The notes under the pieces: model-generated | The model's database searches: none | The model's input: only the letters and a program-made list of their open reading frames with translations | What the model was told of the DNA's origin: nothing | Translations under genes and position numbers: made by a program | Shown: positions 15,600 to 57,239 of the stretch, piece by piece | Numbering within the stretch: position 1 is the first letter of the stretch | How the letters are laid out: every line of letters begins with the position of its first letter | From: Rhynchopus sp. YZ270_cl-10 | Taxonomy: Eukaryota | Assembly: GCA_964035575.1 (NCBI GenBank) | Contig: OZ037834.1 | Location: 1,736,001 to 1,800,000, forward strand | Length of the DNA: 64,000 bases | Direction: 5' to 3'

Positions 15600-15737
15600 T
15601 ATGTCGACAGCAATATGGGGTAGTACGAGAGGAACTCCCATTTCTCCCTGGTATCTACGGTTGTCCGATCGGACAGTGCCGTGATGCTACCACTGGAATG
15701 GATTATGGCTGAACGCCTCTAAGCCAGAACCCAGTCT
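15600..15737 (+). rRNA. Isolated LSU (28S) rRNA 3'-domain fragment including the sarcin-ricin loop, probably a pseudogene
   Basis: AGTACGAGAGGAAC (15622-15635) and GATTATGGCTGAACGCCTCTAAGCCAGAA (15701-15729) occur in canonical order. No rDNA context on either side. Confidence 0.85.
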
Positions 15738-26700: not shown

Positions 26701-26974
26701 TCTGCAGGATATGCGTGGCTCCCTCCAATCCATGCGGGACACAGTAAAGTCACCGAACACCTGGGAGGATGCGAAGCTCAGCCCCGCACGCTACTCCCGC
26801 GCCTCCTCCAGTCCAGGGGCATACTGGGAGAAGCTCAAAGGCATCATGGGTGACGACTACGTCGCAATAGAAGGCGACGGTGTCGGCAACATGGGCAACC
26901 TCCTCTCCCCTTCCCACTCAGGGTCGCCACTCCCAAGGGGCGACACCTCCCTAGAGGCTGGGTATCGAATGTGA
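23737..26974 (+). CDS. Kelch-repeat beta-propeller protein with Pro-rich and coiled-coil C-terminus; join(23737..23835,24123..24161,24482..26974)
   Basis: RAYHTAVVHGGRMIVFGG, WGHSAVLFNNYMLVYGG and RGLHVAEVVGAELLIFGG Kelch motifs. The two upstream exons are inferred from phase-0 GT-AG junctions and are less certain. Confidence 0.88.
23924..23956 (+). repeat. Hairpin repeat family A copy in Kelch gene intron 1
   Basis: GGTGACTAAGCACGAGAGGCTTAGGATCATCTT. Confidence 0.9.
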
Positions 26975-27210
26975 GATAGAACCAGCTTTTTTTTTTTTTT
27001 TGCGAGATCTGTAGACATGGCACATCTTGATATTTTGTGCGAATTTTAGAAGACTTCCTTTCCCCTCCCCCTGCCCCGTCTCCCTCCCAAAAAAAAACCA
27101 TGTATTTTCTGTAAAATGGCTGAATAAGATAGTGGGAGGGTGTTGTTTTTATCCTTTTCCTCCCCTGACATCATGTAACAACTCATCTCACAATACAGGG
27201 CCACAACACG

Positions 27211-30200
27211 ATGGCTGGGGCAATCGCCCTCGTCGTGCTTGCGGTTGTCGGTGATCTGCCTATATACTCAGACTTGACACCGCCGGCGCCGTATGTTAGT
27301 GTGAACAGCACATGGAACACTTCGAATTTTGCGTCGAATTTGCAGAGGCCGTTCCCGACCGGGCAGTGGTGGACGGCGTTCGCAGACCCAACGGGCACTG
27401 TAGACCCTGTGATCAACGCACTGCCCCTGCTTGTTAAGAGGATTGAGTGTGGGTTCGCCTTGGCACCCCCGACACTGACGTTTTCTAATGTGAATCGTGC
27501 TGCGTCGCACAGCTTCACCGACGACGTGACAGTGCGGGTGAGTACAAGCGCAACCGGGTGTGCGTCGTCGATCACCGGATGGGATTCATACTCAGTGACG
27601 ATGCTGCAGAGCGTGCCGCAGGGGTTGAGTGCGGGTGACGGGATTGAGTCGATCTTCGCGCGTGGGTCACCCTTCGCGTCGTTCAGGGCTGTGGGAGGTA
27701 CGTTTGCGGAGATCACCTTCAAGGACCGCATCCGGCAGGTCTCGAATGTGCAGATCAACGGTGCAGTGCCCGTCACGGCAAGCATGCTTAACATCACCAC
27801 AGAGGAAGGCGACGCGTGGCTCGTGTTGCTCCCACAAAAGACGCAGCTCACGATCACACGCACCAGTGTTGTCTACACAGAAGCAATGGACGGCTGGGTG
27901 CGTATCGCATACATCCCCACCACAGGAGGCTCGATCGCTGCCGCGTCCGAGTACCTCGTTGAGCACGGCAGCTGTGTCGCCCAAGGTGGTTCGCCCAACA
28001 CAGACATACGCGGCACAACACTGACAGTGGAACACAAATGGAACGGGGCAGGCAACACCTGCAACCCGCTGATGCTCACTGCGCCCCACCACAGGACATT
28101 CTGGAAAGACACGTGGTCGACTGCGTGGCTCAGCAGCCCGCTGCAGTACGAGACGCTGATGGGGGTGCTCATGCCTGCGCCCGCACGCTTCACGTCGTTC
28201 ACGCTTGCGCATGACGTTGTGGCCGGGTTTGACGACCTTACCACACGGGCGACAAACCTGCAGCTGTGCGAGGAGTACTTCCTTCACAACAAGGTGCTTG
28301 TGGACGATGCGTACCTCCTGGGCACCGTCCAGACAGACTCGAAGAACGCAACCGGAGAGGACGAATCCCTTCGGGTCAAGAGTCAGGAGCTCTACGGGCT
28401 GGCGAAGACGTACCGTGTGGCACGCCGTCTGAGTGCAGTGAAGATGGGACAACGTCTGCAGACGCGGATGTTTGAGGTGCTGTCAGGCATGACTTCGCTT
28501 GCTGCATACGACTCGACGTGGGGTGGCATGGTCATCTCGCCCCCAGACAGGCCCCTCTCCGAGAGCATCACCGACCAGTACGAGAACAACACAAAGATCT
28601 TCGGACGCATCCTCTATGGGTACGCAGAGCTCTACGGCACCCCGCCTGGGAGCGTCAAGCCTGCACCGACACCGCCAGCCTCTATCTCCGTCTTCATCAC
28701 GGCGCTGCTGCGCACGGTCATGTTCTCCGGCACCTCCGATTGGTACCCACAGCTGCGCAACTACGACTTCTACACGGCGCTGTCCTTCTCAGGTGGGCTT
28801 GTGGCCGACACCGAGGAGGGGAGGGTGTTGTCGGCCCCGTCAGATGCGCTGATTCAGTGGCAGGCTGCACGCGATGTGTCGACGCTGCTGGGCATTGCGA
28901 ACGCGACACAGCTGGCAACGATTCTGTTCACAATGGAGGCTGCCTCTGTGGGGGAGTACTGGCTGGCGCTCAACAGCAAGGTGGGAACGTCTTCTGTTGC
29001 AGTGGCGACGTACGGAACGATGAGCCTGTCGTCGCAGGACCAGCTCACAACACTGTCGCCTGTGGGCGAGCATCTGACGTCCCTGCGGACGGAGATTGCT
29101 TTGGTGGGGCGTACCACACAGATCATGACGAACCTGCTGCAGACGGTGCCGTCGACACTGCAGGACACAGCACGCCCCCTCGAGACGAACACATACGACC
29201 TCACGCTCCTCGGCATCATCAACGGCACGCACACGCTGCAGCTCCTCGAGAACGGCGTCAGCGTGAACTACACAGTCATGGAGCCGCTCTTCTCCATTGT
29301 TGAGTACGCCGTGCTCTCCGCCGACCCCTTCGCACTCATCCCCTGCAGCGAGATGTTCAGCACCTGGAACGGCTCACTCCCACTGACAGTGGTCGGACGC
29401 CAGCTGTGGTACAAAGACTCCTTCAACTACCAAGTGCGCTCCATCGACTACGTCCCCGGAGTGATCTACCGTGAGCCCACCCAGACCAACATCTACGGTT
29501 CTGTGTACGAGCGGATCTTCAAGCGTGACTTCCCGCGTATCAAAGACGCAGGGTTCAACACCCTGAAGGTGCGGTGGTTTTCGAGCAAATCTGTGTTGGG
29601 GATGACGGAGTTTGTGAACCTTGCGGCGGAGTTCGACTTGAACATTATTTTCACGTTTTCGGCGAGTGAGGATGAGGTGCTGAACAACAGGCATTTGACG
29701 GAGCAGCGTTTCATCGATGCGATGGATGCGATGGCCGACAAGTCAAACGTGATCATGTGGAACCTTGAGTCGACCTCCTTCGTGAGCATCTCTGTCGACG
29801 GTGCCTACAACTACCTGACGCTGTTCCGCCAGCTGCTGCGTATCCGTAACAAGTACGACTACTACCTGCGCCGCCCTCTGGCCCTCTCGCTTCTGCCCTT
29901 CTACGCCGATGCCTTGGCCGTGGGTGGACTCAACCCTGTCGACATTTACACCGACGGAGTTGAGATTGTCATCATGACGGTGTACGAACTGAACCTGACC
30001 TCCACACGAGAGCTGCTCGCAAAGGTCGCCCACCCCATCCACATCAACCTGCAGTCGGACTCGTACCACGGGATCAACGAGACGCAGGATGCTGTGTACC
30101 GTTCAGAGTTGCTGTTCAACCAGACGCAGATGGTGTTGGCATTGCACCACGAACACGAGGTGTGTGGTGTTGGTGTCATTGAGTGGGTGGACGAGTGGTG

Positions 30201-33200
30201 GCGTGGTGAGGACTCTGACTCTGACAACGACTGTTCGGACCCATCTCCCGGGCGTCACAGCCACTGTGCGACGCGCGTGATCGACTTCCACGACGGAGAG
30301 ATCAACCTTGAGCACCAAGGTCTGCACTTCCAAGAGGACAAGTGGCTGCTGCACTGCATCTCCCCGAAGCCGTCCTACAACGCTGTGTCGCGTGCGCTGA
30401 CCGGCACTTCTGTGGACCACGGCGAGTCGTGCCTCTTCATCCCCCTCGACAACTTCTGGGCCTGGTTCGTCATGATCGCGTCTGCAGCCTTCTTCATTGC
30501 AGGTATCGTCCTCTGCACCTCCATGCGTGTCCTTGCCTCCCGCAAGAAGCGCCGTGCCGAGAACAAAGGTGCCCAGTCGGGCACCCGCTGGCTCCAACCA
30601 GACATCTCAAAGATCTCGCGTATCATCGTGAAGCGTACCTGCACCCTCCCGCACACACAGACACCCTTCCAACGCATTGCCATCCAAACCGAGTCGGGTC
30701 TCTCCTCCAAGGACCCAGCCCCGCTCTCGGGGGAGTGGGAAGGCGAGGTGCTGTGGTCCGAGCTGGACCAGGTGCGCGAGCTTGGGGTGTTCCTCCAGTT
30801 TTCGGCCCTGCCAAACAATATTGGGTACACGATCCAAGGACAGGATGTTGGGAACAAATACAAGATCACTGGACAGACACGGTCGCTTGATGTTGCGCAG
30901 ACCTCTGGGATGCCGCGTACGAAGGAAGACGGGTCGAAGCTGCTTGTTGAGCGCTACTTGGTTGAGTTTGTTGCGAAGAACATGATCCCGGACCAGGACG
31001 GTGGGGTGGACGAGGACCTTGAGTTTGTTGGTGTGTGGGAGAAGTGGGAGTCGCTCCCGAACGAGGACGGCGCCACACGCATCTCTGAGGTCATTGCTGG
31101 CGGTGCTGCTGCAGCCCCTACCATCCCACGCGGCATTCAGACTGGGTGCAGAGTCATCGACCACGGCGAACCCTTCGTCGAGTTTGCCGGATCCTTCAAA
31201 CTCAGCCCACAGCCCGAGATCGACCCCTGGTGTTACAACAGATGGCAGTGTGTACGTCTCCAGCTGGAACGCCTGCAGATGCTTATCTACGACGAGATGC
31301 TCTGCCAAGGCCGCTGGGGGACAGAGGCCAAGTACCAAGAGACCGACGCTGCCTTTGACTACGCAGTGAGCACCCTGCACTACCGTTACATGCATTCTTT
31401 CTACGGATGGTGCCACGCGCAGGGGCAGGTCGGCGGGATCCTCGACATCCCAGACGAGGCGCAAGAGAAGCGGACCGACGAGCAGCTGACGGAGCTGCTT
31501 GCGCTCTTCACGCTGTGGCAGCTGGGTGAGCAGATGACGCTGTTTGCGGGACACTGGCTGAGTTGGAACTTCCACTACTTCATGAAGTTCAAGAAGTTCC
31601 CACCGACACACGTGATCAACGATGGGCGGCACTTCATGGAGACCAACCTCACATTTGACGACCTGAACGAATCATGTGCGTTGATGCCGTACTACGATGT
31701 GCCGCATCAGTGTAACGAGTACTGCCAGGAAGTGTGCTCGATTGCGCTTGAGGAGAAGGGCCAGCGTGCGATGCCGAAGCTGCTCCTTCCCGACGGCAAC
31801 GTCGACAAGAACGAGACCATGCGCTACCCCTTCTTCAAGACGTTCCGTGAGCCGCGCAAGTGGGGTGTCGTGTTCTACATGCTGCACGATGGGTTCTTCA
31901 TCCTGCACACAACGATCCTCATGTTCTTCTTCTGGGCACTTGTCGTACACTTCTCCGACGACAACGGCAGCCACGCCCTTGGCGAGGTCATGGAGCGCTC
32001 CTACAACGTGTGGAGTGGACAGCCGGACTCAATGCGCTTCATCTTCCTGGTGCTGTGCAAGATCGACTTCTGGATGGTCATCATCCACGAGTCGCTTGAT
32101 CTGTGGATCCTTTCTGGTATCACACAAAGCCCTGCGCTTGGTGTCCTGGGGACACGTGTGTGCAGCATGTTCGGTCTGATGGTGTGCTACTGCCGGTGCT
32201 GCTGCAAGCGGCAGAGGGGCGCGACAGACATCCGTGAGATCTCATGCCAAACGTTCTGGACGGACACGACGTGTCGCCGTATCCGACTGCGTCCGTTCTT
32301 CCAGCTGCGGTGGTCGTCGTACGTTGCGCTGGTGTCGTTTGCCATCTTCTTGGGTGAGTCGCTCTTTGAGAACGACGCAACCGTGTCGAGCATCCGCATC
32401 ACAGGGCACCTTCTCGTCCGCATCGGCTTCCTGCTGATCTTCAACGCCGTCATCACACTGTGGCCGCACAGACTGCACGGTTCCCCTGTACCGGCCGATG
32501 GGACGTCGCGCATCAACCACACTGCGTTGGTCATTTCGTTCTTCTTCTGGCTTCTCATTTACTCAGGCGCGTCGGTGTTCATGGCATGGACGATGTACCG
32601 CACGGAGAATACAGGGTTTTCGTTCTGTGACTGTGATGGGTTGCAGTCGGACATTGAGGACCACGGTGCGACTGAGTTTGGACGGGACTTACTGAGCAAG
32701 GTGTACTCTTGCGTGCGTGACCAGCCACGTTGCTTTACGGCAGTGTTTTTCATCTGGCTGTCGACGTGCGTGATGTTTGCGATCTCTGTCCACGGGGTGT
32801 TCCTGCTGGGTGTCGTCTTCCTTGGCGGTGTGAAGCACCTTCTCATGCAGTGGCAGAACAAGAAGTCGCGCAACCTGCGCTCCCACAAGATGGAGACGAA
32901 GTTCATCCTCTCCGCAATCAACGTCAAGCTGCTGTCCTTCTCAGACCCGCGAGACAACAAGCTTGCTATGCGCGTCTGGAACAGAGTCATCGAGGTCATG
33001 CACGAAGAGGACCTGCTCACATCATACGAAAGCGAGACCCTGCAGATCCACCCGCATATCGTCGACATCCAGTTCACACTCGAAAACGCCTTTGCAAAGG
33101 AACGCATGTCAGGCTTCCTTGAGTACCTTCAGAGCTCTACTGAGTTTGACGAGACGTTAGGCCCCGTGCAGTGCTACCCATCTGTGTCGGTGATCGTGCC

Positions 33201-36200
33201 TGTGTACGGTGAGAACGTCCTTGCCGACAAACGTGCCCTTCGTCTCAAGGCGCGTGGCGACCACCAGCAGCAGTCGCAGCTGCACTTCCTCGTTGAGTGC
33301 TACGAAGACGAATGGAACAACTTCATCGAGCGCTGTGTCAATGAACAGCGTCTCTTCCGTGGCGCGCTGCTTGAGGACCAGATTGTTGCCCTGCTGCAGG
33401 ACAAACAGACCCTGCAGGAGGAGTTCGACTACATCAAGAAGCGTGCCCTCAAGCCTGACCAGCGTCTGCGTGAGGTCTGCGGGAAGCGTGTTCTCGAGCT
33501 CTTCCACACGCGCCCGAAGCTCTTCAGCGACGAGGAGTTCGACGCTGTGTGGTGGTGGGCGTCGATGCGCATGCAGACTGTGGGCCGCACCATCCGTGGT
33601 ATCGAGCGCAACCGTGAGGCGATGCGCTTCCTTCTGGAGCTTGAGTCGGACTACACGCAGTCTGCGACCATCACCCCGACGTACATCGACATGATGTCTT
33701 CGGACAAGCTGCAGATTGTGATGGCCCTCCAGCGCATGTCGAACAGCAAATGGTACGACTCCAACAAAGAGGCGCTTGCAGCTGCGTGGCGGCGCTTCCC
33801 TAAGATGCAGGTGGTCTTCGACGTGGAGACGGCAGACTACCGCATGGCACCCGAGGTGTACCAGAAGAGCACGTACCTGATGCAGGACCTGTGGGACTGC
33901 ATGGAGTTCGCCTCTTGTGTTGCGCTGTGGGACGTCACGACTGAGGACTGGTATGTGAACCAGGTGGTGGGCAGGCGTCTGCCGCTGCGTATGACTAAGT
34001 CGGACCAAGTCAAGTGGAGCATCCCCGGCCCCATGCAAGGCAAGTCCGTGAACCAGGCACACTGTCTCCCCTTCTGCAAGGGGCAGGTCATCCAGACCGT
34101 CGACTGCAACCAGGACGGCTACTTCGAGGAGTCCCTCAAGATGCGGTCCCTCCTTGGGAAGTTCTTCCCGAGGGAGGACAGAAGGTGGTCGGAGTACAAG
34201 GTGGTGGGCCACCCGGAGTACGTCATCACGATGCAGTCGGGCACAGTCGGACGCTACGCAGGGTACGCTGAGTACATCTTCAACACGCTCTTCCAGCGTG
34301 TGCTCTCTACCCTTGGGGCACGCATGCACTACGGGCACCCCGACTACTTCGATGCCTCATGGGTGGTCACGCAAGGTGGGCTGTCGAAACCCAACCCCCG
34401 CCTGAACCTGAACGAAGATATCTTCGCCGGCTACCACATCAAAGCCTCTAAGGAGCACACCATCCACATGGACGACATGAAGAGCGGAAAGGGGCGTGAA
34501 ACGAACTTCGACGGCGCAATGGGTTTCGAGCAGAAGCTTGGCATGGGTGCGGCAATGCAGTACCGTTCCCGCGATGTGTTTGAGCTGTCGCGGTACTCAA
34601 ACTTTTTGGAGCGGCATTCGATTTTCTTTGGGTCGATTGGGATGTACGTTTACTTGGGACTTGTGTTCTCGCAGATCTTCACCACGATGATCCTGCACAT
34701 CTCCTTGCAGCTTGCAGGGAAGACCGAGTACGAGCTGAGCGGGACTCCTTACGGAAGCGAGTGGATGCTTCAGGTGACGTTGCTCGAGGCTCTGCCGCTT
34801 GGAGTGCAGCTTATCCTTGACTACGGCGTGTGGGGGCTGTTCCAGTGGTTCTGGGACTTCACCGGTGTGACGTGGTTCTTCTTGTTTGTATTCCTGACCA
34901 AATACCAGGCGTTCTGGGGCTCTGTTGTGCAGGGCAACGGGACGTACGTTGCTACAGGCCGTGTGGACCCGCTGTACCGCCGTTCATTCCGCCACATGTG
35001 GCGTCTCTACTCGCACTCCCACTTCATGTACGGCTCTCTGCTGCTCGCATTGGTAGTCCTCTTCATGGACATCACCAGCCTGAGTGGCTGGCGTGCGTTC
35101 ATTCGCTCGATCTTCCATTGGATGGTTGCCTTTGCTTGGATGGTCACACCATGTCTTTTCAACCCCTCTCTGACGATCCGTGGTTTGTTGAAGGACATTG
35201 TGCGGTTCTTTTTGTGGGTGTGGGGCGACGCCATTCAGAAGGTGAAGGGAACAGAAGACAGCCATACCCTTGGGGAGGGGCAACACAACGACAGAGGTGG
35301 CGAGAAGAAGAAGCTGGGTGAACTGTTCAACACTCTTGTCCGCAAGAACCGTGGTGATGCCGAAGGGGACGAGGCTGCGCAGTCTGGCGCCTTGGTGAGC
35401 AAATCACAGCGTGACGATGCGAAGACGCTTACTGCGTCACCATCGACCGAGTTTGGCGACAAGGACTCCTTCTTGGGCCTGCCTGCTGCAGAGGAGGAGC
35501 AACTAGAGAAGGACTTTGGTGTGAACGTGCTTTCCGAGCAGTCCTCTGAGGTTGTCGACGACTTTGGGGAGATGGAGATTGGCGACAACAAGCCGATTGC
35601 TGCTTCTACCGAGCATTCCTTTTCTCCACGCAACTTGCGTGGCTTTGAAGAATTCTACGACGCTGATGCACATCGCCCCACTGTGGGCACACGCCTCAAG
35701 AAGTTCGAAGACGACGACGAAGGCCTACGCGACTCAGACGAGCTCACCATGGAGCACTTCATCGACCGCGGTGTCGACCCCCGCACCCTCGACAACCTTG
35801 AAGACGTTTTCAACAAGCTCGATGCACGCAATCAATACCGTGGTCTCATTGGCCCCGAGCTCATCTTCCTTGGCTTCCTCAGTCGTGGTATCCGAGTAAA
35901 GCCCAGCGACGTCGAAGAGCACCTCCACGCACTGAACGTAACGGAGGTGACCCTCGAAGAGTTCTGTCTGATCTACTTCATGGTGGAGGGCACCAGCGCG
36001 CAGCTGGACAACTATGGGATTGACTATGCGATTGAGAATCTGCCGCAGGAGAAGTACGACTCAATTCTGAAGCAGCAGGAGGAGATGAAGAAGTACCGTC
36101 AGTACGACGACCCGCGCGATTTGCAGGCAGAATCCTACATTCAGTTTGCCTACGCGCTGAGACGCAGCAAGGCGGTGCGTGAGGTGCAGTTCTACGACTC

Positions 36201-39200
36201 AACACACAACCTGGACCGTGTCCGCACAGAGTCTCTTCTGCACCACTACAAGGTGGCGCTGGTTCTCGAGCACAGAGGGAACTCTACCACCGGCCGCTTC
36301 CTCTGGTGCCTCGCAACCATGGGTCTCTGGCTCTTCGCATACTTCGCACTGTGGCAGGACATCCTCTGGGAGGTGTTCTACTTCATCCTCATCTTCGCCT
36401 GGGAGTACGTTGTGTGCCTCCCCAACGTCGTGCCCATTGTGATCCTCACCAAGGTATTGGTGCACGTTTTTGTGTTTGTACGTCTGATCCTCATGCTTGG
36501 ACAAACAAACGTCTTCTTCCCAACGATCTTTATGACCTATTGGTTTGTGCACTCAGTCATTGCGTTGAAGCTCTCCTTCTGGTCCGCGTATGGACCGTAC
36601 ATCATGGGGCGTGATGCGTTCCGTGCGAAGCAGATTGACCAGCAGAGGGAGCGTGCGCTCTTGATGTTGCTGAAGGACTCCCGCGAGCAGTACCTCTTTG
36701 CGTTCAGCTACTATGTGTTCTGCAGGCGGATCCTTGCGATGATCATTGTGACGTTCCAGTTCCTCTTCTGCATCTTGGTGTTGCTGGTGAAGGCGATTAT
36801 TGCGCTGATCAGCTGGCTTATTTGGAACGTTGGGAAGTACTTTGCGAGACGCAATGCTACGCAGACGACGTACATCTCTTCAAGAGGGAAGGCGGAGGAG
36901 GAGAACAAGCAGCGGGGGCGCACCTCCTTTGATATGATGACACAAACCGACGATGGTGCCACGGGACGCGGCACGCATATGTGGGGTGAGGAGATGGGGA
37001 CACAGATCTACCTGCCTGGCGACGACGGCTTTGAAGATTTGATGCTTGTCCCGCCGGATATGCAGTACCTCCCGCAGCTCGGCTTTGGGCTGCCTGACGG
37101 CTTCAACCCTGAGGACTGGCCGCCAGAGTGGCTCGACCTTGCCTTCCCTGACGGCAAGGCGGCCTCGTGGCTGCCCGTTGCACTCAACGACGATCTCCCC
37201 CCAGCAGAATGGCTCAAAATTGCTTTCGGTGATGATGAGCTCCCTGCTGACTGGCTTGATGTCTGCCCACCCGACGAGCTTGGCTGGGAGTGGCCAGAAA
37301 AGCCGCCGAAGAACTGGCCTGAACGTCTCTCCTGGCCACCGCCACGCCCTGGAAAGAAGCAAACTGATGAGATTGACCCGGAGTGGCTGAAGTTCCTTGT
37401 TGCTGCGGACGACCTGGACCCGGAATACATCAAGAAGGCGTTGAAGAACGACCTGCCTGCGGCGGAGTGGCTGAAGATTGCGTTTGGTGGAGACGACTTC
37501 CCTGCGGAGTGGCTGGACATTGCACCGCCACCGGGTGGGTTGTGGCCTACCGAACCGCCACTGAACTGGCCCAAGGACGCACCATGGCCGCCACCACGAC
37601 CAAAGGCTGCCAAGCCCGGCGAACTGGACCCCCACTGGATCCGCAAGCTGATGGACCCCAAGAACGACGACACCCTCCGCAAGGTCCTCGAACAAGAGGA
37701 CGAACCGGTCGACTGGCTCAACCTCGCTGCCGGGAACGACCCCCCCGCAGACTGGCTCAACTTCCCAGGCGGCGGTCTTCCTAACAAACCTCCAAAACTA
37801 TGGCCCAAGCGTCTTCCTTACCCTCCTCCTAAGGGCAAAGACTTGCCAGATGACTTACCTGTTGATTGGCTTAAATTCGGGCTTGACAAAAAGGTGGATG
37901 ACGACAAACTGATTCACATTAGGGATCTTGACTTGCAGCCGGTTGATTGGTTGAAGCTTGCGTATGATGATGATGACTTGTCTCCTGAGATTCTTGGGTT
38001 TGCGCCGGAGCCGGGAAAACCTTGGCCTGAGAAGCCTCCACCGGGGTACCCAAGCGATGCACCGTGGCCTCCACCACGCACCTTCCTGGACGATGACGAC
38101 GATGATGTTGATGTAAAGTGGCTCAAGCTTGCCTTCGACGACGACGAACTCACCCCAGAGATGCTCAAGGCCGCTGTCGACGGTGACCTCGACCCCGCAG
38201 AATGGCTTAGGATCGCTCGCGGTGGCGACCCCAACGCAGAATGGCTCAACATGATCCCCGAACCTGGCAAGCTCTGGGCAAAACGCCCACCAAAAGACTA
38301 TCCCAAAGAAATGCCCTGGCCACCACCGAAGGTTCCAACAAACCCTACCAGACGACCTGTTGAAGGAGGGGAAATCCCTCCGGAATGGCTTGAAATTGCG
38401 TTAAATGATGGAGAAGATACTCTTGACCGCGCGCTTCGTGGTGAGTTGGATCCTTTCGATTGGCTCAAACTGGCGCGTGGTGCGGATCCTGACCCGGAGT
38501 GGCTGACATTGGGAGAGGACGGTGAATTTCCTTCAAAACCGCCTGCAAACTACCCTGCAGGACTGCCTTGGCCACCACCCAAGCGGAAGAAGGAGAACGA
38601 CGTATCTGCAGAGTGGCTTGCCTTTGCCATGGAACACCCCGACCTCGACGATGCTGGCAAACAACGTGCCCTGGATGGCGATCTCGACACAGTAGAATGG
38701 CTTAACCTCGCGGCCGGAGGCGACCCTGACCCAGACTGGCTCAAACTCGACTCTGATGGAGAATACAAAAAGGAGCGTCCAAAGAACTATCCTGCCAATG
38801 CACCATGGCCGCCACCAAAGCCAAAATCCGCTCCAGGAGCAGATGTACCAGAAGCCTGGCTGAACATTGCAATGAACTCTGACGCACCCATCGATGTCAA
38901 ACGACGTGCGTTCGAGGGTGACCTGCTCCCTGCAGAGTGGTTGAAGCTGGCGACGGGGGATAACCTTGACCCCGATTGGCTGTCGCTTGGACCTGATGGT
39001 GAGTTCCCTTTGGAACGCCCTGATAACTATCCTGTGGAGCTTCCATGGCCGCCGCCGAAGAATGCGGACTTTGATTTGCCAATTGATTGGATAAGGTTTG
39101 CGGCACTGCATCCAACAGCGCCGCCAGCATTGAAGAAAAAGGCAATGAACAATGACCTGGACCCTGTAGAGTGGTTGGCGTTGGCAGCAGGGGAAGACCC

Positions 39201-42200
39201 TGATGCGGATTGGTTGAAGCTCGGACCGGATGGTGAATACCCAACAGAACGTCCAAAGAATTATCCTCCAAACGCACCATGGCCGCCGCCGAAGGTAAAG
39301 GCACGCCCCGATACAGATGTCCCGCAGGAGTGGATTAACATCGCAATGAACGCAGACGCGCCGCTCGCAGTGAAGAAGCGTGCGATGTACGGACAGCTCC
39401 TGCCAACGGATTGGCTGCGTCTCTCTACAGGTGATATGAGTCCGCGGAATTCTTGGATGTCCTTCGGAAAGGATGGAAGCTTTGCAAAGCAACGTCCAAA
39501 GGATTACCCAGCGTCTGCACCATGGCCGCCACCGAAGCCTCGTGCAGGACCGCTCCCAAATTGGCTTGCATTCGCAGTGCAAAACCCGGACATCCCAACC
39601 GACCTCAAGAAGCGTGCCCTCGATGACGAACTCGATGTGATTGATTGGCTGCAGATTGCGGCGGGGGACAACCCGGTGGACCCGGATTGGTTGAAGTTGG
39701 GACCGGATAGGGAGTACCCTCTGGCTCGTCCACAGAACTACCCGCCGTATGCTCCGTGGCCACCGCCGAAGGCGAAGGCAGCACCTGGCGCAGACGTGCC
39801 TGAGGAGTGGCTCAACATCGCAATGAACGCAGACGCAACGCTGGATACAAAGAAGCGCTCTCTTGGGGCAGACCTCTTACCCGCAGAGTGGCTCAAGCTT
39901 GCAACAGGAAACGAACCAGACCCACGCTGGCTTGCCCTCGGCCCTGATGGCGAGCTTCCCAAGACACGCCCACCAGGCTACCCAGCGCACCTCCCATGGC
40001 CGCCTCCAAAGCGTCGTGGTGGCGACCTCCCGATCGACTGGATCAAATTCGCTCTCGCCAAACCGGACCTCCCGGAGGCAACCCGGAAGCGTGTTCTCTC
40101 GACACCTGGTGATATCCCCTCGGTGGAGTGGTTGCAGATTGCGGCTGGGAACGACCCGGTTGACCCGGCTTGGTTGAAGTTAGGACCGGACGGTGAGTTC
40201 GCGAAGGAGCGTCCAAAGAACTACCCAGCTGATGCGCCGTGGCCACCTCCCAAGCCGAAGACAAAGGAGGCAGCGAGCATTCCACCGGAGTGGCAGATGC
40301 TGCTGACGGATGCAGACTGCCCGCCGGATGCGAAGCGACGTGGCTTTGATGGAGACATGCTGAGTGCAGAGTGGCTGCAGATCGCGACCGGGGACGACCC
40401 GGACCCGAGCTGGCTGTCGCTTGGCCCAGATGGAAACTTCCCCGACGAACGCCCTGCGACGTACCCTGCAGACAAGCCGTGGCCACCACCTCCTCCTCCT
40501 CCGGTTCTGAAACCACGTACAAAGAAGCGTTCTACGGACTATGACCTGCCTGCAGAATGGCTCCAGGTGGCGTTGGATAAGAAGGTACCCGACGACACCC
40601 TCCGCCGTGCGCACCGTGGTGACATCAAACCGCAAGAATGGATCCGCATTGCGCTCGACGGCAAGGACCCACCCGCCACCTGGCTCTCTCTCGGTCCCGA
40701 TGGGAAGTTCCCCGCCACCCGCCCAGAAGGCTACCCAAAGAACCTCCCATGGCCGCCACCTGACGGAAAGAAGGGCGTTGCAGACGCGAACCTCCCTGCA
40801 GAGTGGCTGAAGATTGCAGTAGACCGTGGTGCATACGGCATGATCGACGACGCTGCGAACGACAAGCTTGACCCTGTGGAGTGGCTCAACCTTGCTATGG
40901 ATGGCAAGCAGATCGACCCAAAATGGCTCAAACTTGGCCCCGACGGAAAGTACCCCAAACACCCCCCTGTGGGCTATCCCAAAAACGTTCCGTGGCCGCC
41001 ACTGTACAAACGCCCTGACGAGGATCTGGACGCAACCATGATGAACGCACCTGAACGTCCCTTCGATTTGCCTCCAGAGTGGCTGGCGATGGCGTTGGAG
41101 CAGAATGTGCCGCTGGAGACCATTGAGCGTGCGAAGCGTGGTGAGCTGTCTGAGGTGGAGTGGCTCCGCATTGCGAACAACGGAGACGAGCCGCCACCGC
41201 TGTGGATGGACAAGAACGTGAAGGGCGACTGGCCGGCGGAGAGACCTGCCGACTACCCTGCGGATAGGCCGTGGCCACCACCGACCAATGCAAAGGACTA
41301 CGACCTGGACCCAGAGTGGCTTGCGATTGCCTTTGAAAGGAAGGCAACCAAGGCACAAATCAAGCGTGTCATCGAGGGCGAGATGCTCCCTGCAGAAATC
41401 CTCGAGCTTGCCCTCGGTGAAGACTCAATCAACCCAAGCTGGCTCACCGTCGACCAGAACGGCAACTACGCTGAGTCACGCCCTGCAGACTACCCCCCGA
41501 ACCTGCCGTGGCCCCCACCAAAGACAAAGGCAGCCACTACAGCGATTGCCGCCAGCGAAGTCCCCGTGGACTGGGCATCGTACACCCTAGGCCGGAAGGA
41601 CACCGAGAAGAACATGAAGGACCGCGCCCTTAAGGGTGAGCTCCGCCCGATCGACTGGCTCAAGCTTGTCAATGGAGGAGAGACGCCGCCTGAGGAGTGG
41701 CTTGATTTGAGTGGCGGGCGTCCTCCGGGGTACCCGCCGAATGCTCCGTGGCCTCCACCATCACAAAAATTCAACCCGAACTGGGAATACAAGAATAAAT
41801 GGATTAAATTTGCTTTGGCGCGGTGCGGCAGCAAGGCGGTGTTCACAGGCATGCAGAACGAAATGAAGCCCGAGGATTGGTTAACCCTCGCACGTGGCGG
41901 CCAGCCCCCTCCGAAGGAGTGGCTTCAAACAAACGCAGACGGCAACTTCCCCGAGAAGCCACCGGAGGACTATCCAAAGGACATGCCTTGGCCACCACCA
42001 CAGACCACCCCGGCTTTGATCCCTGCAAAGGAGAAGGCTTCGCCTGCAAGACGCAAGAAGCGTGCACCTACCATTGGAAAGAAGCAACAGAAGGCTGGGG
42101 TCAGCTTTGCCCCGAGCGGCAGTGCTATGAACGACGAAGATGCGGGGGTACCGACAGAATGGTTGAATCTCGCTTTCCACGCTCAGCCGCCGATGGACGA

Positions 42201-45200
42201 AGACAAGCTGAAGCTCGCGTTGAAGGGGGAGCTTCTCCCGCGGGAGTGGCTGCAGCTTGCGGCTGGTGGTGGAGAGATCCCTGCAGAGTGGTTGAAGCAT
42301 ATGCCCAACCCTGGAGAGGCGTGGCCAGCACAGCGTCCTGTAGGATACCCAGGGGATATGCCGTGGCCGCCACCGAGGACAAAGAAGGGAGATCTGTCGC
42401 CTCCGGTGTCGCCAAGCAGAAACCGTGCGCCGCCAAAATCGGATCAATTCCTGTCAGCGCCTGGAGGCGGGCGTGACGAGGAGAACCTTCCGGCAGTGTG
42501 GCTCAACTTCGCCTTTGGGAAGATCTCGCAGGATACTGGAGGGGGGCAGAAGGAGCTTGCCGCATCGCAGCTCCCGGACGTCATCAACAACGACCTGCCG
42601 CCAGCGGAGTGGCTCAAGATGGCGAACCGCGGAGAAGAGATCCCCGAGTCCTGGCATGCCATCATCCCAGCCCCAGGTGAGTCCTGGCCGCAGCTTGCAC
42701 CAGAAGGATACCCCATCGAAGCGCCTTGGCCACCTCCAAAACCAAAGACGTATGTTTCCTTTTATGAGATCTGATGTGAGAAGTGAGTCAGAAAACTCAA
42801 AAAAAAAAAAGCAATAAGAACCGGCTTTAAAGGGAGGTTGTTAAACTAGATTTTGTGTGATAACGATGATGGGGTGTGAGAGAGAGGAAAAAAAGCCGCA
42901 CCTACCCATGATGTAGTGGTGAATGGTGAAATATGTATGGGGGGTGTGCCAGAGGGTTGTCTCGAGGTGGACGGCAATGAAACATAGTGGAGGGAGTGGT
43001 TCGTGTTCTGTGGGTTATTAGGTGCACTAAATGAAACAGATTATAAATGAAAACAACACACCAAAAACAGGAACGGATTCGCATGCGAGGTGTGGGGAGA
43101 AGAGGGACCGACCTCAGCCAGGTCGAACCAGATCCAAGACGAGTATGTCAAAAAAAAATTTTTTGCTGCGCGATAACGAATGTGATCACGGTGACTAAGC
43201 ACGAAAGGCTTAGGGTCATCTTATTTAGCTCAACACTTTGCACCTTTAGAATTTTGGGCGACATGATATGGGAGGGCTTTTGTCAATTCCAATAAACATT
43301 ACACACAACAGACTTATGATTGGAACTGTCCCCAACGTGCAAGGATATGCCCCTGGTACTGAGGAGCCCAAGGAGAAGGTATGCTCTCGCTCCCTCACCC
43401 TCACCCCCACTCTCTACGAGCACGGTAAATAGTCGTGACTCAGCACGAAATGCTGCTAACTTTTTCTTCCTTTTTTTGCGCCCACGAAGGTGTCTGCAGG
43501 TTAGACTTTTTTTCCCTTCAGACTGTCATCAGACCATCATACACATATCATCCACCACGACAACAGAAACCGGCAGCCTGGACGAACAACGGTCTGCAGG
43601 AGTTCCAAGACCAACTCATCATGGGGTCGAACATCGCCCCGCAAGAGGAGCAGGAGAAGCCACGCAGGCCAGAGGAGTCGCACCTCATCTACTTCAAGGA
43701 GAACGTGCCGGGGGATGTGTCCAAGCCGGTCCATTTCGTGGACGCTGAAAACTTCCAGAACGTATGCCACAAAGCTTGACACTAGGTTTTGATTCATCGG
43801 TTTTTGTTTGTGTGTGTTTTTTATTTTTGGAGGCTGACAAAGATTCGTAGGTTTTCATAGCAGCGTGTCTCTTTAATTTTCACCCCACCACAGATTGCCG
43901 AGTTCCGTGCAGGAGTGCGCCACTTCTTGCAGTTCCGCGGACCTGTCGACCAGGTTCTTCTCCAGGTCAAGAAACGGGGTGACTTCACTGACTTGGTATG
44001 AATCAAACCCTGCTTGCTGCATCCCCTACCCTTGGTAGGGGATGACACGTTTTCTTCATTTAGTGCGCTGCACAGCATGCAGCTCTTTTCAATATTTTTT
44101 TTGCTGTGTTTGGCCTCACCGAGCACACCTTATTAGGATCATCCCTTTGTTTCCTGATTGTACTTTAGTCACACAACACCCCACCTTCAGGAGGAGATTG
44201 AAAACCACCACCAATGGCCTCTGCGCACATCGCATCAGAGCCCTGTGTTGGTGACAATCTTTGATCTGTACAAGCCGCGGATGAAGAAGCAGACGCTGAA
44301 GGTGAGGGGGAACCAGCTGAGGCTGGGGCTTTCGACGGATATTAATAGGCGTGCGATGACTGCGGCTGGGCGGAGGGACAACACGCAGAAGCCTGCTGTG
44401 CGGAACTTGATGAAGCAGGCATCGTCTCGCATGCTGAAGGCAGCGGCAGCAGCACCCGTGGTCGCTCCGTCGCAACGTGCACGCCACGGCAGAGTTGTCC
44501 AGGAGGACCTGGCGACCGTGCACGAGCCCCGCTCCTCCAGGCGCACGAACTCCCCCAAGAAGAAGCCCGCCGTCGCCAAGACCAAGGCAGAGTACTCAGA
44601 CTCCTCCGATTCCGAAACTGCAGGCGACGTCTTCGTCCCAGACATTGGTGTCACCTTAGAGACCGCAGAGCAGCACCGCAAGAACGTTGCAACAAGCGGA
44701 CTCAAGGTTGCAGCTTCGGTAGGCCCTGCACATGAGGGAGGCATCCGGGCGGGTATGTTATTTGGTTTATTTTCCCCCAATGAAGTCAACCCCCCTTTCC
44801 CCCCTGCATATCCGTTGATATGTTTTGCACCTTTTTTTGTATTCAAGATGAGCGGATCTCAGAAAAAAAATATTCAAAAGAGGAGACGACACTGATGGAC
44901 AAAACCCCATCTTTCGATTGAAAATATTATCTTACTCATGTTACCAACTGTCAATCTTCGCTAACCCTATGCATATTTCCCCTCATAGGTGACGTGATCC
45001 TCAGCATGAACGGACGCATCATGAACACAACCAGCGACGTCACAAAGCTTGTGAAACAGCTTAAGAAGGAGGAAAACAAAGACCCGCTTACTGTTGTCGT
45101 TAACCGCAGCGGTGCGGGTGGACGCGCGACACTTCTTGTCAAGATGTTCAACGAGCTGCCCGCGAAGACTCAACTTCAAGCAGACTTTAAGCTGCCCACT

Positions 45201-45671
45201 TTAGGGGATATGTTCAAGAAGATGGCAGGCAGCAGTAGTCCTAACATCACAGCGAACCGCTCGGCGACTGCGATTCCTATGATACAACCACCGACACCGA
45301 GGGGCATTGTACCGCCACCTGCTACCACGAACATGGCGTCGAGCAGCAGTCTCAACATCCCTATGCAAGCTGCACCGGGTCTGACCCCTGCAGGAGGGGG
45401 TGCCCAACCAGGTCTGGTCTCCCCGGCCATTCCTCGGAGAAACTCCTTCAACCCGTCCGTCCAAAGGCGGGGCTCCATTGCGATGTCCCGACGTGGTTCC
45501 AACGCTGGCATGCTCGGCATGCCCCGTCCTACAGTGATGGAGGCTACACCGCGTACAATTCACGGAATGCTCGCAGCACCAGAAGGTCTAGACGCGCAAC
45601 CCGCACCCCCTTCCGCCCCTCAACCCCCTGAGGGAAGCATTTCGCTGACCCTCCCAACCCCTAGGGAGTGA
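27211..45671 (+). CDS. FKS1: Giant multidomain 1,3-beta-glucan synthase (GT48, FKS/callose/paramylon synthase family), ~5715 aa; join(27211..42749,43312..43378,43567..43761,43894..43995,44191..44752,44989..45671)
   Basis: GT48 motifs WASMRMQTVGRTIRG, GKSVNQAH...QTVDCNQDGYFEESLKMRSLL, RMHYGHPD, LNEDIFAG, GKGRE, YVATGR, LYSHSHF. N-terminal GH81-like and TIM-barrel domains. Five GT-AG introns preserve the frame to a PDZ motif (GPAHEGGIRAGDVILSMNG). The symbol is family-level only. Confidence 0.93.
43190..43222 (+). repeat. Hairpin repeat family A copy in glucan synthase intron 1
   Basis: GGTGACTAAGCACGAAAGGCTTAGGGTCATCTT. Confidence 0.9.
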
Positions 45672-48600
45672 AAAAAACAAAGTAGGTTAAAAATAAAATT
45701 CTCATTCTTTTGTCGCTAAGCATGGCTTGGTTTCAATTTTTTTCTTTTCTTTTTCAGTGCATTTTTTTTTGCCTTGGGGCGTTTTGTACAAAAAAAAATT
45801 CTGCCAGTGTTGTCTCAAAAAGGGGGGTGGGTGGTGTTTTTTACGTTAGGTTCGGTCTTTCCCAGATATGGTAGCTTCTTTTGTGTTTTTTTTTTTTTTT
45901 AACTACAAAATGTAGTGTTGCAGTAGCAGCTTTTTTCAAAGGTGACTAAGCACAGAGAGGCTTAGGTTCATCTTACCAAACTTTTCTGACATTTTTTTTT
46001 TCTTCTCTTCAACAGTTTAGATATGTTCCTGGCAGGGTGAGGGCGCTCTTTTTGAACTCAAAGTTTGTCATTTATTTATTATACCTTCTATTCAGTAGAA
46101 TAGTTAGTATATGTCATTATTATGAAACATTTTTTTTTTTTTTTTTTGCTCATGCGGTCCATCGGTACTCTTGTGTTTGATGTCTAGTGCCCTTGAGGCC
46201 ATTCGTCTTGCAAAGTGTTTCTCTTTTCCCCTTTTCTTTTCATGCTTGAGGTGAACCATTCTATTCTTTGGTTAGAATAGAAAAGTTTATTTCTTTTCAA
46301 CAAAAAAAAAAATACATGATCTAGTTAGTTCATCTGTCCCCCTTGTATTTTATTCCTGGTGTCCTGCGTCAAAGCAAAAGGCGTTCACTTTTGAAGTTTC
46401 ATCCTTTTTTTTTTCAGATTTGTGTGCACAAGAAGGTGCATTCATCTTTCAAAAATTCTATTTTTTTTTTTTTTAAACTCACAGAAGATTTAGTGGGTCA
46501 TTACAAGACTTCCTTTAGCCTATTTTCTTCGTTTCTGTCTATCTTTGGTATTTTGTGTGCATGAGGGACACATTCATTTTCCAAATTCGTTTTTTTTTTC
46601 CCCCCCCTTCCTTTTCTTCACGGAGGCGTCAGTGCCTGCGTCCCAGAGGCGTTTTGCACTATCAACTTCACTTTTTTGATTATGTGGGTCTTACCAAACC
46701 CTCAAATTCTCTCCCTTTGGTGTCTCCCCCCCCCTAAAGGTCGGTCTTTCAATCCTAGAAAACTCTAAGGGGTTTGAATTTAAATAGAATGACAAAAAAA
46801 AAAACCAAAAAAAAAATTTGCGAAAAGCGATAGTTTATACCACTGCAAATTATTTTTATCCCACTTCAAAAAGGTATTTCTCAACCTGGGTGGTTTTTTT
46901 CTTTTTTCTTTTTTCTTTTACGCCTACCTGCCTGCCCTTTCCCCCCCTCCCTTTTCTCCCGAACAAAACAAGAGGTAACGCTCTTCTGAATAAAACAAAG
47001 CTTGGGGGTTAATCCAACACTTTCAGTAGTTCACTTTTTTTTTTGTGTGTGAGTTATCTGGGGAACCTTCTTATGTTCTGTTAAGAGAACGTTATTTTGG
47101 AACCCCTTTTTTTAACCATTTCCCCCCCTTTTCGGGGGAGCATTTATTTTATAGACTAACAGATGGAATCGATCGGGTTGAAGATAAAACACCATTTTGT
47201 TGGAATGGTATTTTATTCAATTCGATTAGTCAAAAAACGGTTGCATACGGGGAAGCTTGGTGGGGGGTAGAAAAAAACGTGCGTTCTGCATACCGGAGGG
47301 GGCCCTGCGCGTTATTCGACCTTCACTTTGTGCACTGTGAAGCACATCCCATCTTTTAAAACTTTTGGCAAGAATGGAGTTAAGAAACGCGTATCTACAG
47401 CATATCTGTAGCAAAGTGTTGAATCTTCTTCTCAGCCTTTTCTTACAATTTTTTATGTACAAAAAAAAGGGGGCTTTTTTTTTTCAAAGTTTTTACAATT
47501 CACCAAACCTGTCTTCTTCCGTAGCCCAACACCCCCCTTTATTTTTCCGTAACCGACCCAATATGGTCTTTTTTTCAAAATGGTCCTTCTGAATACTTTT
47601 TCTCTCCTTCTTGCAGGAGAACCTCTCACTTTACGATTCCTCCCTTCAGCGGGGCCAACTATTTGAAAATCTGTGTTTTTTCCCCCACCCTAAGATTGGT
47701 GAGGCCTATGTGAGGCCCGTTCATATCTTCCAAAAAAAAAATAAAACAATTATCCCCTCTTTCTGCCTTTTTAGAACGGAGATTCCCTACCCATGATAGC
47801 CCATATTCACCTCTGTTCAGTTCTTCTTCTTCTTCTTTTTTTTGATTTTTCCTCTGGTGACCTGAGTTTCCAAGGGTGTCACTGAAAGGGGACGTGACGT
47901 GAATTATTATTTGCTAAAATAGCTCCACTGCAATTATTTCCAGATGCCAATTATGGCTTAAAACACCACTCCTAGAAAGGATTATTGGCTTGAGGAAATA
48001 ATTTTACGGCTATTTTTTTTTTTTTTTTTTTGCATTTTATGGCAGAGAGAAGTACGAAAAAAAAAATGGTATTGAAAGAATACCTCTAGAGACAACACAA
48101 TGATGGCAATATCTGTGCAAGGTGGTCAAGCATGGTGGGCTTGTCGTTCATCTTACAACCCCCTTTTTTCTTTCTTCTTTTGTGGGAGCGGGAGGGTTGT
48201 TTTCTTACAAAGTTTTAGTATTACAAAATGTACAAGCTGGCAGTTAGTGTGAGTACGGTGGTGAAAGAGGAAAACAAAAGAGGGATTATTTTTACAATTT
48301 CAAAATTTCTAATTTCCCTCCACCCCTCCTCAACAAGAGCACACTGGCCACAGGTGTCGGAGATCCGCCCAAAACAGCATTTTCGGAGTCTTCAGTTAAG
48401 CACATCGTGCATGACCACCTCCGCTTGCTTCCAGGAGTTTGCAAGCATTTTTTCTTCCCCCTTACCATTCGTTTAACAGTGTCCCTCACTGGCTTTGCGC
48501 TTCAATTTTGCGACAGGATTTTTTTTCTTTGAAATAAATTCCTCCGACTACTTCACACCTTCAATACATACTCCCCCCGACACGAAACAGAAGCTTTTTT

Positions 48601-48680
48601 TTTTCACTTTTTGTCCCTCCTCTTTTTTTTTTCTTACAATCCCCTCGACACGAAAACTTTTTTTAGGTGAATTCAAAACC

Positions 48681-49355
48681 ATGCCATCCCTTCTGTACGA
48701 AGCAGGGGTGACGTACCTCGCAGACAATCCTCTTTTGTGCATCGCCGTATGCCTGCTGGTTGTGAACCTGACTTTCACGAGGCTGGGGTTTCTTCGGACT
48801 AAGACCCCTCACGACCACACTGTTCTGTGGCAGCGCATGGGGTACGCAGACATCACAGCACCGTCACCACCACCACCCTCCTACACCATCCGCAGCACCA
48901 TCGCCTCAACCACTTCCCCTGCGGAGGGTAGGGGGGAAGTACCCGCTACTCCGGTTGCTTCTGTTGTGGTCCCGGCTGTTGTCCCGCAGAGGATAGCGCT
49001 GACGGCAGAGCAAGCGAATAAGAAGAAGGCAAAAGAGATGAAGGCAGAGAGGAGACGGCGGCGTGAGGCCGGGCTGAGTGCCTCCGAGGTCGCAAAGCAC
49101 GTCAATGAGGAGAGCCTCTGGCTTGTATTGAACGGCCGAGTGATTGACGCAACGTCGTTCATAGAGGAGCACTCAGGGGGCGCAGCGGCACTCCTGCGCA
49201 ACGGAGGAAAGGACATCACCGCGCGCTTCATGCGTGTACCAGAGCACCGTGCTGACTACAACAGAGACAGCATTGAAAACACCCTCCGTGAAATGTACCT
49301 CGGCAATCTCAACACACGATACGAAACCAGCCCTACCCCCATGCTAGAGTGGTGA
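48681..49355 (+). CDS. Cytochrome b5-like heme-binding domain protein with N-terminal membrane anchor (224 aa)
   Basis: EVAKHVNEESLWLVLNGRVIDATSFIEEHSGG...GGKDITARFMRVPEH. The ATG lies 14 nt after a TTTTTAG acceptor. Confidence 0.9.
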   Translation: MPSLLYEAGVTYLADNPLLCIAVCLLVVNLTFTRLGFLRTKTPHDHTVLWQRMGYADITAPSPPPPSYTIRSTIASTTSPAEGRGEVPATPVASVVVPAVVPQRIALTAEQANKKKAKEMKAERRRRREAGLSASEVAKHVNEESLWLVLNGRVIDATSFIEEHSGGAAALLRNGGKDITARFMRVPEHRADYNRDSIENTLREMYLGNLNTRYETSPTPMLEW

Positions 49356-56606: not shown

Positions 56607-57239
56607 AGAAAAGGAGAGCAGGTTTTACCTTATTTTTTTTTTTCAGGCAACAGATCGGCTTGTGAGGGAAGGGGAAAGGGAGGTAGGGGGGGGGGGGGGA
56701 GGGGGGCTTTTTATGAGATATGCTGTGCTTTGCATTTTATCTATATTTTTTTTTTTGAAAAATGTTCATTCGTCTTTCATTGGAGGGAGTTGTGAAGAGA
56801 TCTCCCTTTTTTTTTTTGGTTCAGTGTCTGTCTTCTCTAGAGATGTTGGTATCATCAAAACTCCTTATTTGTTTTAGGTGCTCAAACACAACGGGGCTTA
56901 GGCTCTTACTTTATTTTTTTGACATTTCTCCTCCTTTTTTTTTATCTCTCTCCACTTCCGTGGCGGGGCCAGTTTCTCTCTTTTTTTTCCAGCTGGTATT
57001 TGCTGTGTTTACTCACTGCATGCACACTTACCTCCTTCTTCTTCTTTTTTGTCAAACAAACCCAAACCAAAAAACGTACCTTTTTTCATCCCCTCCTCCT
57101 TCTCCTCCTCCCCCTTTCTTCCACCAACCCGCCCCAACAGACTACACAAAAAAGGACCCCGCCTTTCCTCTAAAAGGGGTCTCTTTTTTTTTGGGTTTTT
57201 TTTTCCCTCCGTACCTTTTTTTTTTTTTGCTCCGCACAG

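Follow-up and report, generated by a model that had tools for sequence, protein, structure and literature searches.

A single gene on the forward strand of the window, a 64,000-nucleotide stretch of contig OZ037834.1 from Rhynchopus sp. YZ270_cl-10 (a diplonemid, not a euglenid), is transcribed as one spliced message that encodes a glucan synthase of exceptional layout. Its seven exons yield an open frame of 5,739 residues (about 646 kDa) in which a GH81 fold, a TIM barrel, a GT48 core set among membrane helices, a long repeat array, a ubiquitin-like domain and a PDZ domain follow one another in that order. Somewhat better than an even chance is given to the full mechanism proposed here, in which this one protein would make storage glucan (paramylon) with the aid of non-catalytic luminal binders and a cytosolic scaffold.

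Because the word content of sequencing run X5 against the region was 85%, near the exonic share, the X5 contig was aligned to the window. This 17,544-nt spliced contig spans positions 27198-45960 with zero differing letters and lacks six GT-AG introns, all six of which have a GTATG donor. The 15.5-kb coding part of exon 1 (27211-42749, residues 1-5180) is joined across a GT..AG intron to a 72-nt micro-exon 2 (43071-43142), the peptide of which aligns with both orthologues tested. Exons 3 (43312-43378), 4 (43567-43761), 5 (43894-43995) and 6 (44191-44752) continue the open frame into exon 7 (44989-45960), which codes over 44989-45671 and has its stop codon at 45669-45671. The splice evidence is a single contig of one run, an assembly rather than a long read; X5 belongs to the same coded study as X1-X3, and none of the five runs that cover the region, X5 included, is recorded as RNA. 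Coverage by runs X1-X4 was even and genomic-looking, with the intron joints absent among the 15 of 21 joints listed. Independent support for the exon-encoded tail comes from its collinear alignment with a complete Flectonema transcript product, Diplonema papillatum DIPPA_33377 and Namystynia transcripts.

The first-pass annotation had predicted a polypeptide of about 5700 residues from one spliced message, with 27211-42749 linked to exons that the open reading frame track misses. The X5 contig carries both the polypeptide and the link, and the frame in question (27169-42774, 5,201 codons, ATG at 27211) does stop short of the exons beyond; two genomic gene calls from relatives likewise end at this point, after the last repeat, and lend further independent support. 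Of the five downstream exons that had been expected to end in a PDZ domain, the splicing and the PDZ end stand, but the count becomes six with the micro-exon. A six-exon model with an open frame of 5,730 residues was ruled out by the contig because it misses the micro-exon and takes the wrong exon 4 acceptor; the PDZ, EF-hand-like and ubiquitin-like alignments were made with that model, and the domains concerned are unaffected. At its 5′ end the contig has 22 extra letters, absent from the window, that adjoin an AG at 27197-27198 at the head of a short 5′ untranslated region (27197-27210). The extra letters are likely a spliced leader, and 27197-27198 the trans-splice site. Splicing of an upstream kelch gene into the synthase gene was rejected, as the test join halts at residue 860 and the contig starts at 27198.

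The GT48 catalytic domain with its channel helices (33043-35250, residues 1945-2680) carries the ED motif E2402-D2403 at 34414 and scored 298 bits against PF02364 (Glucan_synthase; cut-off 37.2), with a match to Fks1 at E=1e-36. Hydropathy analysis placed transmembrane (TM) bundles on both sides of it. Active-site residues of yeast Fks1 named in its structure paper (PMC10499315) are E851, D1080, K1082, D1102, N1104, E1155, K1172, E1173, H1195, N1220, E1221, D1222, K1246 and R1248, and 12 of these 14 residues are kept in the phmmer alignment, in keeping with the intact-looking core noted at first pass. The two changes are D1080>Q and K1172>A, and the plant enzymes aligned also differ at both positions. 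Loss of D1080 disables yeast Fks1 (PMC10499315), and the Gln at the equivalent position counts against the mechanism. From the residues retained, the synthase is likely active; the core is the best-conserved part of the protein (55-87% among orthologues of clade A, defined below).

Ahead of the core, a single membrane helix (30457-30540), detected by hydropathy and present at the equivalent place in homologues, would part the luminal modules from the synthase. The putatively cytosolic region and first TM bundle that follow (30541-33042, by hydropathy) may be equivalent to the N-terminal part of Fks1, to which this region gave local, non-significant matches; Pfam yielded no match to FKS1 domain-1 (PF14288) in this protein or its homologues. 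Behind the core lie an EF-hand-like pair (35788-35985), identified by alignment, and a C-terminal TM cluster (36286-36840) conserved in both diplonemid paralogues by hydropathy and alignment. A canonical EF-hand loop has 12 residues and is acidic at positions 1, 3, 5 and 12. The pair is degenerate: the EF-hand-like segment of the first-pass annotation is present in the alignment, but its calcium loop is altered and lengthened and is not canonical. Pfam returned no EF-hand at 35788-35985 in the window protein and weak matches in homologues P0006 and P0008.

A homologue search returned 12 proteins of 2,852-9,078 residues, the window protein among them; those with a named source come from Rhynchopus euleeides (71%), R. 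humris, D. papillatum, Flectonema, Sulcionema, Namystynia and Papus. In a tree of 39 GT48 cores, the window and its nearest relative R. euleeides (87% identity) fell in clade A, clade B comprised a shorter diplonemid paralogue, and Papus plus Apiculatamorpha were sister to A+B (SH-aLRT 99-100). A separate GT48 clade that includes Hemistasia and D. ambulator contains two proteins with a TIM barrel and no GH81 ahead of GT48; its placement is tentative in this quick maximum-likelihood tree with SH-aLRT, and the fragment from D. ambulator does not extend far enough to reveal an N terminus. The same domain order recurs in other diplonemids, in full-length orthologues from D. papillatum (5,525 residues) and the Flectonema (5,505 residues) and Namystynia transcriptomes. 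A search with the luminal region of Papus gave five proteins, only Papus itself having GT48, a weak negative result as known diplonemid homologues were also missed.

The N terminus opens with a predicted signal peptide (27211-27267, residues 1-19), as judged by a hydropathy peak over residues 1-23 and hydrophobic N termini in homologues, and continues into a GH81-fold module (27268-29355, residues 20-715). Fold searches with a predicted model of residues 16-1070 (mean pLDDT 72) matched the three-domain GH81 fold of 5xbz (Z 31.5, rmsd 3.5, 631 aligned; Foldseek E 2e-25). The Pfam Glyco_hydro81C (GH81C) profile reached 23.5 bits, slightly below its cut-off of 25.6, and phmmer with the N-terminal 1,500 residues matched no solved structure, the GH81 structures being found by fold search alone. 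The second luminal module (29374-30414, residues 722-1068) is a clan GH-A barrel of a GH2/GH72-like, bacterial-type family. Its (β/α)8 fold was matched in the same model by GH157 (Z 19.6, rmsd 3.6, 261 aligned), tied with GH2, GH164 and GH5, and in the atlas with scores of 0.94-0.96; its nearest relatives are GH2/GH72-like proteins. Thus, the GH81-like domain, the clan-A barrel and a hydrolase match for the N-terminal third, as called at first pass, are all supported at the level of predicted fold.

Neither fold retains the residues expected of an enzyme. For GH81, the triad was mapped via Papus ankaliazontas P0012 to 4k35 and to the E515A site of 6fop; the Papus NDHHY and QESSSE motifs align with RmLam81A and with this site, which is the first Glu of the Glu-x3-Glu motif. 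Catalysis by GH81 enzymes further involves the Asp of the DHH motif and the second Glu of Glu-x3-Glu. The D/E/E positions read N459/S541/D545 in the window protein, and the complete triad occurs in none of 13 diplonemid-type rows, being complete in Papus and an unrelated GH81 control (two algal controls, P0162 and P0164, in which no anchor motif could be located, were left out of the count). The three positions vary freely among orthologues. Judged by these residues, the “GH81” part of the diplonemid fusion does not qualify as a glucanase.

Enzymes of clan GH-A have an Asn-Glu acid/base on strand 4 and a Glu nucleophile on strand 7. In the window barrel the acid/base NE reads S854-T855 and the nucleophile reads N946. 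Both glutamates are found in 0 of 11 GH81-TIM-GT48 fusion members, Papus included, and in 3/3 eukaryote-type outgroup barrels. Of 17 other hits, 13 were aligned, and 6 of those have both. The two hydrolase folds are thus, on residue evidence, very probably pseudo-enzymes devoid of catalytic residues. Residual glucanase or transglycosylase activity through non-canonical residues, by which the protein would both synthesise and trim glucan, might draw on E853, which sits two residues ahead of the acid/base site at a position where 8 of 10 diplonemid rows have an acidic residue, and on the full GH81 triad of Papus. However, with the nucleophile absent from 11/11 barrels and the GH81 triad positions free to vary, such activity is considered highly improbable.

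Read against the tree, these patterns suggest an order of events. Since the barrel glutamates are gone from every fusion member including Papus, the GH81 of which is intact, the barrel would have lost its catalytic residues before GH81 did, and the GH81 loss would belong to the diplonemid lineage. The GH81-TIM-GT48 fusion, with an active GH81, would then predate the split between diplonemids and prokinetoplastids, and in diplonemids it appears to have duplicated into the long A and short B forms, with the GH81 triad lost there.

The dead luminal modules are still conserved, a point in favor of the mechanism: identity to four orthologues is 37-51% for GH81 and 51-67% for the barrel. In seven A orthologues, 79 of 360 barrel positions are invariant (22%) versus 81 of 696 in the GH81 fold (12%), and the eroded GH81 cleft that this implies counts against it. 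Eight residues of the barrel (W850, E991, W992, D994, W997, R1022, E1034 and W1045) are kept in 11/11 rows, Papus included, which fits a retained sugar site. The hypothesis of luminal glucan binding builds on the behavior of active GH81 enzymes, which bind intertwined chains resembling a triple helix (reviews PMC7915573 and PMC8949617). The first-pass interpretation, a self-contained machine that grips its product on the luminal side, is supported in part: the loss of catalytic residues from the two hydrolase folds favors such a grip indirectly. The luminal modules contain 12 sequons, mostly shared among orthologues, and in 4 of 11 rows the catalytic Asp position of GH81 is itself an N-glycosylation sequon; as this could block the cleft, it counts against binding there. 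The chances that a luminal module binds glucan are judged to be evenly balanced. An active synthase whose dead folds served instead in folding, spacing or oligomerisation would account for the eroded cleft, for the sequon and for the many invariant residues of the luminal folds that are Cys, Gly or Pro. Retention of the eight Trp, Glu, Asp and Arg residues across all barrel rows speaks against this alternative, which is regarded as unlikely.

Exactly 22 copies of an ∼80-residue W/P repeat, the number given at first pass, were located at 37096-42738 (residues 3299-5176) with a profile derived from the units of the window itself, and that profile detected no copies elsewhere in six frames of the window. 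The repeat follows the pattern W-L-x-x-A ... EWL ... W-L ... P-x-x-x-P-x-x-Y-P-x-x-x-P-W-P-P-P. Among relatives, three orthologues have 23, 18 and 17 copies, a truncated orthologue has 9 and Namystynia has 2; the profile found none in B paralogues or in Papus, the sequence of which ends after the core. A modelled Flectonema unit (block pLDDT 71-95) consists of four short helices and a proline-rich arm. Pfam and PDB sequence searches returned nothing under E 0.1 for the repeat, the best atlas score was 0.75, and fold searches gave no match spanning it.

Between the repeats and the PDZ domain lies a ubiquitin-like (β-grasp) domain of ∼90 residues (43678-44265, residues 5264-5350, exons 4-6), common to the A and B paralogues. 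It was overlooked in the domain order of the first-pass annotation, which otherwise holds. In a model of the Flectonema orthologue its core has a block pLDDT of 84-97, and the matches listed are β-grasp folds (best Foldseek E 5.6e-4; best Z 9.2, rmsd 2.6, 78 aligned). Tubulin cofactor E supplied the best Z, through its ubiquitin-like domain, in a tie with numerous ubiquitin-like, PB1, RA and FERM chains. PB1 domains have a strand-1 lysine and an acidic OPCA motif; a partial G-D motif was discerned here, by eye only. The PDZ domain (44629-45146, residues 5472-5565) is split by the last intron. Exon 7 alone (frame 44922-45668) gave a weak PDZ_2 match under the cut-off (E=0.031), and the assignment made at first pass is supported by the PF17820 and PF13180 records of orthologues P0004 and P0005 and by alignment of the I-G-V loop. 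Given its domain types and a basic stretch after the last TM helix, the tail as a whole would be cytosolic. The repeat block and the PDZ domain are bordered by long linkers of low complexity; these and the sheer size of the product could point to a polyprotein that is cut into separate subunits after translation. That reading is held to be most improbable, as no recurring cleavage motif was seen between domains, and the modules are parted by TM helices and recur in an unchanging order in every homologue.

In the supplement of PMC10161547, the only GT48 rows for D. papillatum are DIPPA_09258 (B), labelled “GH81-GT48”, and DIPPA_33377 (A), labelled “GT48”; both are transcribed, with TPM-column values of 1.67 and 1.33 for A and B, respectively. 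The proteomics columns for the two genes are empty, an observation that is counted against the mechanism. The accessible portions of the main text report that D. papillatum makes paramylon and contain no mention of GT48 or GH81. As this paramylon maker has no GT48 rows other than A and B, storage should fall to one or both of the two, and a storage-glucan (paramylon) synthase role for the window protein is considered probable.

A PDZ domain combined with a long scaffold suits cortical anchoring. Consistent with this, the PDZ domain and the 1,900-residue scaffold could pin the enzyme to the cortex. Its product would in that case be a glucan for the cell surface or for secretion (a coat, mucus, cyst or extrusome material) in place of storage granules, made at the plasma membrane or in a secretory organelle. 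Fungal and plant GT48 enzymes export glucan at the plasma membrane, and some diplonemids have the third GT48 clade; the two-gene complement of D. papillatum stands against a surface role, which is judged unlikely. The third clade, with its intact TIM barrel, could be the paramylon synthase of Hemistasia and D. ambulator, a further point against the mechanism.

Under the storage reading, the signal peptide and single TM helix would place GH81 and the barrel in the lumen of a glucan granule, or outside the cell. Like Fks1, the core would polymerise UDP-glucose and drive the chain through its channel, and the barrel, with its kept Trp, Arg, Asp and Glu residues, would bind and order chains without cutting them. 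The GH81 fold may do likewise, its active relatives accommodating triple-helical glucan. Modules that ancestrally cut or remodelled glucan would in this way have become non-catalytic binders, and a scaffold on the cytosolic side, made up of the repeats, ubiquitin-like domain and PDZ domain, would position or regulate the enzyme. As a speculative extension, the dead folds might be a built-in spinneret that catches chains from the channel and templates the triple helix of crystalline paramylon, with the repeat arm, ubiquitin-like domain and PDZ domain arraying synthases on the granule membrane. Such a device would have evolved from a synthesise-and-trim fusion of which Papus, its GH81 triad still intact, is a reminder.

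The literature searched offers no explanation of how GT48 chains are ordered into triple-helical crystalline paramylon, and here a synthase brings its own candidate glucan-handling modules. Nature supplies matched states for comparison: GH81 intact in Papus versus dead in diplonemids, the barrel intact in the Hemistasia clade versus dead, and the tail long in A versus short in B. With only two GT48 genes in D. papillatum the question is directly approachable, and diplonemids are an abundant marine group. The annotation of the fusion is also corrected by the loss of its catalytic residues, and an 80-residue repeat without a family match is added.

Multi-domain enzymes of Euglena were reportedly described by O'Neill in 2015. 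The first-pass annotation had suspected that hydrolase-GT48 fusions were already reported in euglenids; one is indeed on record, but as the PMC10161547 supplement label for a diplonemid. Likewise, the architecture was already described to the extent of that label and of a GenBank orthologue entered as a hypothetical protein, but no paper on this architecture, its lost catalytic residues or its tail was found in the literature searched, beyond the reach of which euglenid fusions may be described. The features beyond the “GH81-GT48” label for which no earlier description was found in that literature are the dead sites, the TIM barrel, the repeats and the tail.

Among known systems, Euglena gracilis GSL2 is a euglenozoan glucan synthase required for paramylon, as cited in PMC6530250 and PMC8219788; no Euglena sequences were among the matches listed. 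Yeast Fks1 and plant callose synthases share the catalytic core and ED motif with the window protein and are about 1,900 residues long; the Pfam lists of the plant GT48 matches contain no luminal hydrolase folds and no PDZ domain, and plant callose synthases form a trimer (preprint 10.64898/2026.05.05.722910). The oomycete-type Achlya proteins P0116, P0074 and P0101, KRE6/SKN1(GH16)-GT48, also have a hydrolase fold ahead of GT48, but it is of the GH16 family and no repeat array is present. Hemistasia P0152 and P0026 (TIM-GT48) have an intact barrel, no GH81 and no repeat array. The prokinetoplastid Papus ankaliazontas EP00760_P027009 has the same luminal pair and synthase; unlike the window protein, its GH81 keeps D701/E778/E782. 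In D. papillatum, paralogue B (DIPPA_09258, KAJ9444635.1, 3,893 residues by length match) has the GH81-TIM-GT48 order, the EF-like pair, the TM cluster and a ubiquitin-like tail, but lacks the W/P repeats and the PDZ domain; its GH81 triad is also lost, a fact absent from its label. Closest of all is the orthologue DIPPA_33377 (KAJ9444596.1), which has 78% identity in the GT48 core and the same order throughout, including the ubiquitin-like and PDZ domains, with 17 repeats in place of 22.

Three proteins recovered by the homologue searches (P0152, P0026 and P0146), some of them diplonemid in origin, contain the same TIM barrel as the main GH81-TIM-GT48 protein but retain both catalytic glutamates. 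In P0152 and P0026, the intact barrel is accompanied by a GT48 domain. P0146 gave no GT48 match and displayed weak similarity to the transmembrane region. The searches also returned P0013, a 3,089-residue protein from Candidatus Omnitrophota with a GT48 domain scoring 218 bits, in which the ED motif is present and which occupies a long branch in the GT48 tree. P0013 is a putative bacterial member of this mainly eukaryotic family.

Inspection of the region following the ubiquitin-like domain revealed a short stretch of basic character at 44272-44330, with the pattern R-x-x-x-L-R ... T-x-(I/L)-x-x-R, which is kept by both the long (A) and the shorter (B) diplonemid paralogues and with which the B proteins end. 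This segment may be a binding motif.

A dispersed element of ∼45 nt was found in the window, in introns and 3′ regions and on the + strand throughout (23924, 43190 and 45941, and also 556, 722 and 54583). Seven matches with two or fewer mismatches were observed against 1.6 expected, all carried by the coding strand. Hairpin folding is possible, with z values of −2.9, −1.5 and −1.4, and no match to the element was found in Rfam. Summed contig depth near 45954 was ∼400,000, compared with 100 for single-copy DNA, implying that the element is very abundant in the genome. At 15609-15737, 129 nt match eukaryotic LSU rRNA with a score of 100 bits, as a fragment standing on its own.

The 2,181-codon ORF at 57174-63719 contains Big_9, cadherin-like and CshA-like repeats, and its predicted product is an adhesin-like protein with domains of bacterial type. 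Other genes in the window encode an ion-channel pore with a LIM-like segment (19095-21359), a kelch propeller with a proline-rich tail (24458-26974) and a cytochrome b5-like domain (48477-49355). All three lie on the + strand, the same arrangement as in diplonemid gene clusters.
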